From an uncultured Poribacteria bacterium (GTDB lineage Bacteria; Poribacteria; WGA-4E; WGA-3G), in the NCBI GenBank assembly GCA_951813565.1, contig OX638351.1:4640001-4704000 (forward strand): 64,000 nt of DNA. Reading direction: 5' to 3'. The notes beneath the pieces were generated by a model that saw nothing but the letters and a program-made list of their open reading frames with translations, did not search any database and was not told the origin of the DNA. The position numbers and the translations under genes were made by a program. Positions 12,089-61,230 of the stretch are shown in pieces. The first letter of the stretch is position 1; each line of letters opens with the position of its first letter.

Positions 12089-12130
12089 TTTTTCCTCTCA
12101 GTTTTTGTGTGATCTAATAATAGATATTAG

Positions 12131-12534
12131 CACTCCCTGTCAAACCCCCTGCCTTTAGGTAGGGGATGTAGACAGCTCAGCAGTTTATGTGTCAAAAAAA
12201 CCTTGACACTTTCACCAAAATTTGATATATTGTCTTTAGCAGTCGGCATCGGTTCTGATTGATGTGGTGGTAGACCGCTCGGCAGTGAAACAATCAGGTA
12301 AAAGCCTTGCGATTCAATACTGCTAAAGTTCTTTGTAACATCTATTGCACGTTTAGGGTAGACGCATTGAAAAATGCTCACCCGCTTGAAAAATCACGTG
12401 TCAAAAATAATAAGTTGCCTTCGGGCAAGTGGCTGGCTTAGCAGCCACTGTGGAGCAGATGTAAGACGCTTCTTCGGAAACGCTAACTGCTACGAAGCAC
12501 AAGCCCCTGCCTTTAGGTAGTGGGTCACTATGAC
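12131..12534 (+). mobile_element. 404-bp non-autonomous IS200/IS605-type element, copy 1 (no tnpA or tnpB)
   Basis: Identical by eye to 60827-61230; subterminal hairpins cccctgcctttaggtagggg and cccctgcctttaggtagtggg; preceded by TTAG, ends TGAC, no target-site duplication. Confidence 0.88.
12203..12231 (+). promoter_or_regulatory. Sigma70-type promoter inside the element
   Basis: TTGACA-17 bp-TATATT with extended TG; the -35 overlaps inverted repeat gtgtcaa-N7-ttgacac. Confidence 0.75.
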
Positions 12535-12554
12535 AGCAAATTACATGCCAATAC
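12234..12554 (+). ncRNA. Structured RNA ending in a TnpB omegaRNA-like scaffold plus flank-derived guide (copy 1)
   Basis: Multiple stems with GAAA and cUUCGg tetraloops; ctgtggag...gtaagac...gaagcacaagcccctgcctttagg resembles IS605 right-end RNA; ends inferred. Confidence 0.6.
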
Positions 12555-12660
12555 AAAAATATCGTGCTTCCGAGAAAACGCACTTCAGCACTCACTACAG
12601 TTGCACGATAAGGGGCAGGACAAATTAAAAAGCACAAATTCGGGCAGCTTTATCAAATTA

Positions 12661-13009
12661 CTATAGTTTGGACAATTCTTGTCTTGTGGAAGTTAAGTTT
12701 ACAACAGAAAGCTATTTTTCTATGAGTTTTACATATCAGTGGAAACCTGCGAAAAATGCTGCACGCCAGTGGAGTGCTATGTCTATAGAAAACGGTATGT
12801 GCCCATGCTTGCACGCCAGCGGAGTGCTATGTGTCGAACCTCATACCGCTCCGCTGGAGCGGTATGAGGTTCATAATGTGGCTATAAACATATTGCTCCG
12901 CTGGAACAAAGAGGGTTTCTGTTTTGTTCATGGTGTCTTGATTGGAAACCTAAGTGGTGGACCAATTTCTTATATCAACTCACGTTTGAAAAAATTATTT
13001 AAACTATAG
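12661..13009. mobile_element. MITE-like element
   Basis: Imperfect ~20-bp TIR ctatagtttggacaatt / aattatttaaactatag; internal gcacgccagyggagtgctatgt twice and cataccgctccgctggagcgg shared with 1741-1890. Confidence 0.65.
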
Positions 13010-13046
13010 TCAAATTAGTACAGAATAGAATATCAGAGTTATAACT

Positions 13047-17107: not shown

Positions 17108-17959
17108 TTAGGTGCGGGCTTGCAAGCGCGCGAGTTGTTCTTGGAGTTTTGCGGCTTCCGCTTCTGCCTGTTCGGCACGTGCTTCGGCAGTTTCTGCGCG
17201 TATGGCTTCCTGTTCAGCGTGTGCTTCGGCAGTTTCTGCACGTGTGGTTTCTTGTTCAGCGCGTGCTTCGGCAGTTTCTGCGCGTATGGCTTCCTGTTCA
17301 GCGCGTGCTTCGGCAGTTTCTGCGCGTATGGCTTCCTGTTCAGCAAGCGATAGTGCTGACTCCGCAGGTGTTTGAAGCCACTCATCTGCAACTGGGTCAT
17401 AAATACCTAAACCCACATTATCAACATGGAAATCTAAACCCAGAGCAGAAGAATGTAAACCGCCAGTCGGACCTGCTGAAATCGGAACATACACATCATC
17501 AACCAACTCAAAACCCATCAGCGCGGATGGTAAATACAATCCCTCTGCATCATATAATAAGTAGTCTTGTATTCCCAATAAACCGTAAAGTTCCAACTTT
17601 TTACCTAAGTCGTCTCGGTATGTGTTTTTGCTTGAAAACTCCATCGCGAAATCAGGCACCTTCCCTTCCTCCCAGACCTTATACGTCCTTCGGAGTTTCT
17701 TACCTAAACCGAAAGTGACCAGAACATCTGGCGCAACTGATTTACGCGGGTCTCCCTCCACATAATACATCAGTATATCACCAGATACATAGACTTCCGG
17801 TCTTTCTTCAAAATGCGTATCAAGAACTTGTAATGTTCGAATAAGGATTCGTCTGTGAAGGTCGCTGACTGCCATCGGTTTTCCATCCGTTTCTGGATAA
17901 ATGTCTAACTCATCTGTAGGTACGGAAGGGATATCGAGTCCTTTTAGATAAGTAGTCAT
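17108..17959 (-). CDS. Uma2 family endonuclease with C-terminal coiled-coil repeats
   Basis: YPETDGKPMA, APDVLV, EFSSKNT; AEQEAIRAETAEAR repeats. Confidence 0.88.
   Translation of the reverse strand: MTTYLKGLDIPSVPTDELDIYPETDGKPMAVSDLHRRILIRTLQVLDTHFEERPEVYVSGDILMYYVEGDPRKSVAPDVLVTFGLGKKLRRTYKVWEEGKVPDFAMEFSSKNTYRDDLGKKLELYGLLGIQDYLLYDAEGLYLPSALMGFELVDDVYVPISAGPTGGLHSSALGLDFHVDNVGLGIYDPVADEWLQTPAESALSLAEQEAIRAETAEARAEQEAIRAETAEARAEQETTRAETAEAHAEQEAIRAETAEARAEQAEAEAAKLQEQLARLQART
17160..17345. repeat. 42-bp tandem repeat, about 4 units, coding
   Basis: gtgcttcggcagtttctgcgcgtatggcttcctgttcagcgc repeated with few substitutions. Confidence 0.9.
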
Positions 17960-60675: not shown

Positions 60676-60826
60676 TCAACGTAAAAAAGTTGGTATTTTC
60701 TGACAATCTGATGTATAATTTGGAATATGGCACAATACTACGATAACGCAGTCAAATATGTCATGCTTGGGCATTCTCAAGAATTTGCAGAATTCATGGT
60801 AGGACACTCAAACATCAAAGTATTAG

Positions 60827-61230
60827 CACTCCCTGTCAAACCCCCTGCCTTTAGGTAGGGGATGTAGACAGCTCAGCAGTTTATGTGTCAAAAAAACCTT
60901 GACACTTTCACCAAAATTTGATATATTGTCTTTAGCAGTCGGCATCGGTTCTGATTGATGTGGTGGTAGACCGCTCGGCAGTGAAACAATCAGGTAAAAG
61001 CCTTGCGATTCAATACTGCTAAAGTTCTTTGTAACATCTATTGCACGTTTAGGGTAGACGCATTGAAAAATGCTCACCCGCTTGAAAAATCACGTGTCAA
61101 AAATAATAAGTTGCCTTCGGGCAAGTGGCTGGCTTAGCAGCCACTGTGGAGCAGATGTAAGACGCTTCTTCGGAAACGCTAACTGCTACGAAGCACAAGC
61201 CCCTGCCTTTAGGTAGTGGGTCACTATGAC
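60827..61230 (+). mobile_element. 404-bp non-autonomous IS200/IS605-type element, copy 2
   Basis: Identical to 12131-12534; boundaries fixed by reading-frame restoration of the host gene. Confidence 0.9.

Follow-up and report, generated by a model that had tools for sequence, protein, structure and literature searches.

A gene-less IS200/IS605 element of Poribacteria that very probably joins a conserved, doubly pseudoknotted RNA to a TnpB omegaRNA scaffold

Poribacteria are sponge symbionts, and a short insertion element in the genome of one uncultured member raises the question of what a transposon without genes carries between its ends. The element lies in a 64,000-nt stretch of contig OX638351.1 (GCA_951813565.1, positions 4,640,001 to 4,704,000), referred to here as the window; plain coordinates are those of the window and all features are on its + strand unless stated otherwise. 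A first-pass annotation of the letters alone had placed structured RNA domains, selected as RNA rather than decayed from coding DNA, where tnpA or tnpB would normally lie, and had wavered between an enlarged omegaRNA and a second RNA module carried as cargo. The analysis described here identifies the element, with high confidence, as a PATE served by TnpA in trans, in which a promoter points to the opening base of an RNA of ~170 nt that is conserved and doubly pseudoknotted (the module) and that is joined, with no terminator in between, to an intact TnpB omegaRNA scaffold. Such elements form a known class; the module is apparently a new structured RNA motif.

The gene-less element measures 404 bp and is composed, in order, of a left end, a promoter, the module, a small hairpin and an omegaRNA scaffold, the whole being flanked by a YibE/F-family gene and uvrC. 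It follows the tetranucleotide TTAG (12127..12130), which is host DNA and the presumed TnpB TAM, and opens with an IS200/IS605 left end (12131..12176) bearing a subterminal hairpin (12146-12165). This left end is 94-96% identical to the left ends of the genome's tnpB and tnpA+tnpB elements, the ends being common to ~30 such elements. Ten matches to Y1 transposases (TnpA, PF01797) occur in the source genome, and the 370- and 373-aa proteins of related elements carry PF01385 and PF07282, which makes them TnpB. No ORF of 81 aa or more is present in the gene-less element itself. A BLAST search of the source genome with 12127-12534 recovered five copies at 99.5-100% identity and one at 73%; two of the five near-identical copies fall within the window, the second at 60823..61230 with its module starting at 60934. 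All five identical copies are preceded by TTAG, as are most of the tnpB elements that share their ends; the five copies have five different flanks, a distribution that implies recent movement. The empty site of a relative (locus L244) reads TTAG and then directly the right flank, with no target duplication. Together, the TTAG, the shared ends, the empty site, the Y1 transposases and TnpB argue for a recently active gene-less IS200/IS605 element. Hairpin ends shared with tnpA/tnpB elements, a fixed tetranucleotide target without duplication and the lack of a protein gene are likewise the features of PATE-like IS200/IS605 elements in the available text of Meers et al. (PMC10055086), which also have an omegaRNA scaffold at the right end and rely on TnpA and TnpB in trans; the Poribacteria element differs from the PATEs of that text in having its own promoter and the conserved ~170-nt doubly pseudoknotted module.

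The right portion of the element (12429..12534) comprises the TnpB omegaRNA (reRNA) scaffold and the right end, with a hairpin at 12501-12523 and a terminus reading ...ATGAC; over its full length it can be aligned with the 3' ends of the elements encoding the 370- and 373-aa TnpB proteins. The pairing gtggctg/cagccac (from 12429), initially counted as an extra domain, is in fact the opening stem of the usual omegaRNA scaffold, which the tnpB genes of this genome also have at their 3' ends. The host flank adjoining the right end (12535..12550) would be the guide of this copy; TTAG followed by its 10-nt seed was not found elsewhere in the source genome, and six guides of that genome yielded no self-target of TAM plus 10-nt seed, with three 16-mers at three mismatches. 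Solitary right-end or partial-scaffold pieces of ~100 nt, with a fixed AT-rich start and neither left end nor module, are present at L307, L308, L309, L294 and L300. In the source genome, a left end is fused to a right end via their common hairpin in a minimal element of ~50 bp (G000:C1:918775-918813), and in a tnpB element (G000:C1:2821929-2824394) the left end is separated from tnpB by an additional ORF of 346 aa that probably represents a second insertion. Elsewhere in the window are a nested, REP-like palindromic repeat cluster (12650-13040), with portions that recur at as many as 65 genomic sites, and a gene (17108-17959) whose tail is made of AEQEAIRAETAEAR-type repeats in tandem.

Ahead of the module lies a sigma70-type promoter (12203..12231; TTGACA-17-TATATT with an extended TG, 11 of 12 consensus positions) whose predicted start is 12238, in a region similar to the tnpA promoter region of the full element. 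Of 100 distinct upstream regions, 99 have a promoter-like motif that ends 5-9 nt short of the module, sigma70-like in 77 and in 22 of a type (AAACC..CGTCTA) that we take to be ECF-like, against 9% and 2%, respectively, in shuffled controls. The ECF-sigma-like form is seen at the same distance from the module in about one fifth of copies (L172, L176-L180, L063, L064, L195 and others). Conservation begins exactly at the predicted +1 behind both promoter types, and the delivery of the same +1 base by two unrelated promoter classes suggests that the exact 5' end matters. Loops of the type cUUCGg occur on the + strand of 48 of 106 distinct modules and on the - strand of none (shuffled controls, 4%), which supports the view that the module would act as + strand RNA. 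The + strand has no intrinsic terminator or ribosome site downstream; a single transcript of ~310 nt presumably runs from the module through the scaffold. The small UUCG hairpin between them (12415..12428), replaced in the homologs inspected by a hairpin of differing sequence, lacks a following U-run on the + strand and has a terminator-like score on the - strand only. Two poly(A) libraries cover the element at a depth of 15-33 and leave the flanking genes uncovered, a signal inseparable from DNA carry-over; one contig of an RNA library spans the left end and its flank, and a DNA run gives ~16 element copies per chromosome. A metatranscriptome covered only the ends and scaffolds of relatives.

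The module extends over ~170 nt (12238-12404) and is followed by an AU-rich linker and the UUCG hairpin. Covariation outlines two pseudoknots and a three-way junction in addition to a stem that is long and irregular. Its first domain, a knotted core (12238..12345) assessed by pair counts and by the energies of matched versus swapped duplexes, starts with P1, which begins at base 2 of the module and closes the 5' end (P1a, 12239-42/12307-10; P1b, 12245-47/12304-06). Beyond P1 come the conserved internal loop AUNGGUU/GUAAAA (12248-54/12298-303), P2 (ctgattg/caatcag; 12255-61/12291-97) and the junction hairpin P3 (12264-67/12275-78). Pseudoknot 1 joins the strand between P3 and the 3' side of P2 with the tail past P1 (12281-86/12319-24 plus 12287-89/12313-15), P4 follows at 12328-30/12337-39, and pseudoknot 2 pairs the P3 loop with bases past P4 (12270-74/12341-45). 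The second domain (12345..12404) consists of P5 (12345-52/12396-404) around P6 (12356-59/12380-83) and a GAAA-capped hairpin (12364-77). Sixteen positions of the module are invariant and largely unpaired, the invariant bases lying at 12247-49, 12251-54, 12262, 12264, 12269, 12279, 12298-99, 12302, 12314 and 12326-27. GG faces AA in the internal loop of most variants, with CC in 6 of 103.

The pairings proposed at the outset, all of them present as letters, fared unevenly against this fold. Those of P2, of gggt..gcatt-GAAA-aatgc..accc (12356-12383) and of ttgcc-TTCG-ggcaa were retained as helices, but the outermost, ctttagcagt/actgctaaag (12234-12243/12319-12328), is a perfect 10-bp inverted repeat that was abandoned as a helix: four bases at its 5' end precede the predicted start, the part that would be transcribed has double changes in none of seven pairs and, at 88%, pairs no better than shuffles, and its 3' strand covaries with the internal segment 12281-12289. 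As the subtype present in the window has the same six bases in its 5' end and its pseudoknot strand, the outer helix appears to be a by-product. Similarly, the boxA-like string gttctttgtaac proved to be hairpin P4, whose arms change together, unlike an rrn boxA, which is a conserved sequence in single-stranded form, and antitermination through it finds no footing in a variable hairpin that an A-rich linker replaces in one subtype.

The structure was derived from mutual information and from a reading of divergent copies. Among 40 homologs of one genus, 98.3% of cells are paired, with double-sided changes in 20 of 40 pairs; for 57 sequences from two genera the corresponding values are 92.6% and 24 of 31 pairs, the latter including all five pairs of pseudoknot 2 and four of the seven counted pairs of pseudoknot 1. 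P5 is 96% paired in the 40 homologs and shows double changes in two of five pairs. None of 500 shuffles attained the observed values and slid controls reached at most 45%, counts that are not probabilities since the structure was derived from the same, related sequences; the variety of pair types is the stronger point in favour of the fold. An alignment-free comparison gave pseudoknot 1 a duplex energy of -7.67 kcal/mol for matched strands and -4.32 for swapped ones, and pseudoknot 2 values of -5.05 and -3.67, in a test that skipped three copies and in which five rows with a mis-parsed 3' strand lower the matched mean. At least six pairs of pseudoknot 1 can be formed in 96 of 101 sequences. 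Nested folding is less telling: z is -1.68 for 12200-12480, -2.54 for 12344-12432 and -0.13 for 12238-12352, so that the core folds no better than shuffles in nested form and its case rests on covariation. The nested fold of the second domain is predicted in most of 14 homologs, with a median z of -0.48 over 101. Judged by comparison of sequences, the fold is clearly under selection. No ORF start is common to more than 46 of the 106 modules, and these share no ORF for a small peptide. The initial expectation of a selected + strand RNA in place of tnpA/tnpB, upstream of the omegaRNA, is therefore borne out by the covariation and the + strand-only cUUCGg loops.

That no family could be assigned also held. 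Rfam 15, with its riboswitches, ribozymes, HEARO and IS605-associated motifs, has no match in the window at the gathering score, the sole match at E<=10 being one of 14.6 bits on the left-end hairpin, and a scan of ten loci at E<=5 placed nothing on the module in the seven homolog loci among them, with a sub-threshold HgcC match on one scaffold. Hammerhead, HDV-like, twister and pistol ribozymes were rejected for want of an Rfam match and after a comparison by eye in which their core nucleotides and topology were not seen. A group I intron of the IStron kind was set aside as well, since the RNA begins inside the element, the element ends in C, whereas such introns have a terminal G along with a P3/P7 core and its G-binding site, and no Rfam match was obtained; the helix order of the module presumably also differs from that of group I. 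IStrons (group I intron plus IS605/IS607; 10.1101/2023.11.20.567912) do resemble this element in placing a structured RNA between IS605-type ends and ahead of an omegaRNA, but their splice sites, as given in the available text, are the element ends, whereas the Poribacteria RNA is much smaller and starts ~107 nt inside at its own promoter. The loops of IS110 bridge or seek RNAs pair and covary with target and donor. Among 85 distinct copies no position of the module tracks the target motif, contrary to the suggestion that its loops might be complementary to ends or targets, and the best offset equals the target motif or its complement in six copies, all with one motif, so that this identity was rejected too. 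A 17-nt likeness between 12168-12184 and 12270-12286 was treated as chance, given that it lies upstream of the promoter and that similar linkers occur in full elements. A motif named 'Poribacteria-1' is said to be among those of Weinberg and colleagues from 2017. The name is absent from the main text of that paper (Weinberg et al. 2017; PMC5737381) and, if the motif is in Rfam 15, the Rfam scans exclude it as the module. More generally, neither Rfam 15 nor the literature searched on Poribacteria RNA, TnpB and IS605 cargo, which took in few subscription papers, contained the module.

The module is confined to a single Poribacteria family in the genomes searched. Its interior was found by DNA search in 19 of 40 genomes of the genus, the source genome included, and with covariance model R1 it was detected in 48 of the family's 99 genomes but nowhere in 51 genomes belonging to other families. 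Model R3, applied to a partly different set of genomes, extended the range to a third genus, its one match among 16 genomes of other families being noise at 22 bits; in model R2, usable only as a sequence profile, true matches score at least 50 bits and noise ~25. An exact degenerate pattern retrieved 49 GTDB loci, all from Poribacteria, 17 metagenome records of which three are true members and 14 chance, and no viral contig, a scan blind to remote relatives. In none of the genomes and metagenome records searched does the module occur outside IS ends. Ten of 122 distinct contexts are cut by contig ends; in 105 of the remaining 112 a right end follows within 420 nt of the start, which leaves no room for a gene, and 16 further copies have the same layout. 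The other seven contexts, without a recognisable right end, are interrupted, decayed or unexplained. Two of these seven, L202:280-600 and L199, have a divergent module with both domains; a promoter lies upstream together with an end of a different type, and no scaffold follows. A group of three CRISPR-like 30-nt repeats, 67-68 nt apart (L047:2951-3114), lies ~1.3 kb downstream of one module-bearing element.

All six module matches of the source genome are in gene-less elements, model R3 found the module in none of 26 tnpB-bearing loci, and some genomes have dozens of tnpB copies but no module (e.g. G020, G062 and G080). About ten types of left end precede the module and three right-end/scaffold families follow it, families that are all seen on tnpB genes as well. 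On a tree of 96 modules, from which four aberrant rows and copies lacking a right end were left out, the scaffold family changes at least eight times where two changes are the minimum, and the deep split roughly follows two genera. At least eight re-joinings to different scaffolds argue that the module works independently of scaffold sequence. Its presence on three scaffold families and absence from the 26 tnpB loci favour a second RNA module carried as cargo, the better fitting of the two original readings, over an enlarged omegaRNA, which fits less well.

Other IS605-family transcripts and elements in Poribacteria also bear structured-looking RNA. Many tnpB genes (L315-L344; e.g. G000:C1:1845333-1843929) have, by eye, a closed, pseudoknot-like leader of 70-95 nt between promoter and start codon, which like the module starts at the +1 and combines a closed 5' stem with a pseudoknot, but differs in topology and sequence; the module model matches none of these leaders, nor anything in the element of the source genome that bears such a leader. 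Ten gene-less IS605-type elements of the source genome, belonging to several end families, have a promoter-less, structured-looking interior of ~220-400 nt (G000:C1:365561-365971 [L143], 1854043-1854420 [L144], 2324387-2324954, 4013158-4013735 and six more), without an Rfam match in the two that were scanned; in L058 and L076 the module itself is interrupted by one such element. A third gene-less kind (G000:C1:963510-963977, L142) has a promoter, a tnpB-like pseudoknot-like leader and then the scaffold, with ~150 nt of structured-looking RNA containing a T-loop-like hairpin between leader and scaffold.

What the module does is less certain than what it is. The role considered foremost, which we hold tentatively and at somewhat less than an even chance, is that of a 5' protective and insulating fold that would raise the supply of guides for TnpB loading in trans. 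The module would take the place of the missing tnpB mRNA. A ~300-nt transcript without translation may be prone to fast degradation, and a fold closing on the first nucleotides and locked by two pseudoknots would shield it from RNase J and 5'-dependent RNase E, while also preventing upstream sequence from mispairing with the scaffold. More guide would then be available to load TnpB from other elements, TnpB would trim off the module, and its cutting of empty donor sites (TTAG plus flank) would keep and spread the protein-less element. This proposal rests on the requirement for a start at +1, on the compatibility of the module with any scaffold, on its occurrence almost only before a scaffold, and on the RNase J and RNase E/G encoded by the host genome; the different closed, pseudoknot-like fold at the start of many tnpB mRNAs is in keeping with it. 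Exoribonuclease-resistant RNAs block 5'-3' exonucleases by a ring-like fold around the 5' end. Their flaviviral members, with a three-way junction and pseudoknots near the 5' end (PMC5760640, in the available text), offer a functional analogy only and have no sequence or Rfam similarity to the module; according to the same text, pseudoknotted viral RNA blocks RNase J1 in vitro. As far as the accessible text of Meers et al. (PMC10055086) goes, PATEs often encode omegaRNAs that are acted on in trans. In that of Nety et al. (PMC10278001), processed TnpB omegaRNA scaffolds measure 79-466 nt, TnpB trims 5' sequence from the omegaRNA, and upstream mRNA can inhibit by pairing. The omegaRNAs with a long 5' extension described there are comparable in being one transcript with a 5' part, ahead of a scaffold (~106 nt here), that TnpB could trim, but their 5' part is tnpB mRNA, whereas that of the Poribacteria element is non-coding, covarying and absent from the 26 tnpB-bearing loci.

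Protection by itself meets objections. A plain 5' hairpin would protect, the ten promoter-less mini-elements have spread in the source genome with no module at all, genomes such as G020, G062 and G080 do without it despite their dozens of tnpB copies, and L199 and L202 keep both domains without a recognisable right end; 170 nt with 16 invariant and largely unpaired positions look over-built, which suggests a pocket or a partner. The main alternative, possible yet distinctly doubtful, is thus an independent functional RNA with IS605 ends as its vehicle, be it protein- or metabolite-binding, a decoy or a self-cleaving ribozyme of new fold, which TnpB 5' trimming or its own cleavage would release from the guide and which would act in trans or mature the guide. 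It is given this weight because the invariant bases and two pseudoknots exceed the needs of protection and because mini-elements thrive without the module. The compact double-pseudoknot core, an internal loop that varies as in a structured non-canonical helix, and a deep tree split roughly by genus together with free movement between end families are all in keeping with such an RNA. Its restriction to IS ends is not, nor are the absence of the known ribozyme and group I core motifs, the dispensability of P4 in one subtype, and the patchy distribution, from which it follows that the module is not needed by the host. Bolder still, and unlikely, is the idea of a new catalytic or ligand-binding RNA class existing as a mobile, protein-free 'RNA gene' that would lodge between the ends of many IS605 families, would depend on TnpA for movement and on TnpB for retention and release, and that would mature or conditionally activate the guide.

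A switch gating guide production or folding, in which the pseudoknot would compete with a 5'/3' helix or envelope stress would act through the ECF-type promoter of one fifth of copies, is improbable. Two folds are possible in the window's subtype, where the 5' AGCAGU equals the pseudoknot strand; 54 of 101 sequences allow a 5' helix with an unbroken run of six or more pairs, G-U included, and its 5':3' duplexes average -2.84 when matched and -2.19 when swapped (0 of 2000). This helix nevertheless lacks compensatory change and is weak beside pseudoknot 1, the + strand offers no downstream terminator or ribosome site, and the scaffolds that follow have unrelated sequences, which leaves no common expression platform in view. 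Selection of the pairing in a single-stranded DNA transposition intermediate is very improbable: IS200/IS605 elements do move as a single strand, the same one as the RNA (PMC10055086, available text), but conservation from the exact +1 behind two promoter types, the strand-specific cUUCGg loops and the many G-U pairs all speak for RNA. Least credible of all is an interior that consists of decayed tnpB/tnpA coding DNA, largely refuted in that covariation of this strength is incompatible with decay alone, or that was once part of tnpB and was later shaped into RNA. In its favour one could cite a 17-nt exact match of one subtype to a tnpB gene and the mean score that 14 modules, chosen beforehand, reach in local alignments to two tnpB families, which exceeds those of all of the 150 control ORFs and of 59 out of 60 shared permutations. 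Against it, reversed modules, which cannot be homologous, outscore the real ones (35.5 versus 34.4), the matched positions differ between families, module profiles match nothing in tnpB genes, a nucleotide profile built from 29 tnpB genes puts a shuffled control at the top, and 44 transposon proteins gave no tblastn match better than E 0.019 in 101 elements.

The repeated swapping of the module between transposon families indicates that IS605 ends can carry non-coding RNA modules, and over 100 natural variants of this compact double-pseudoknot motif are at hand. Should the module be a ligand-binding or cleaving RNA, it would define a new class of riboswitches or ribozymes, one linked to an RNA-guided nuclease, and a mobile 'RNA gene', if true, would be a natural controller of such a nuclease. 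If, as the protective role proposes, guides are stabilised and loaded in trans, the module would be a natural 5' stabiliser for TnpB/Cas12f guides and would explain how protein-less IS605 elements compete for TnpB.
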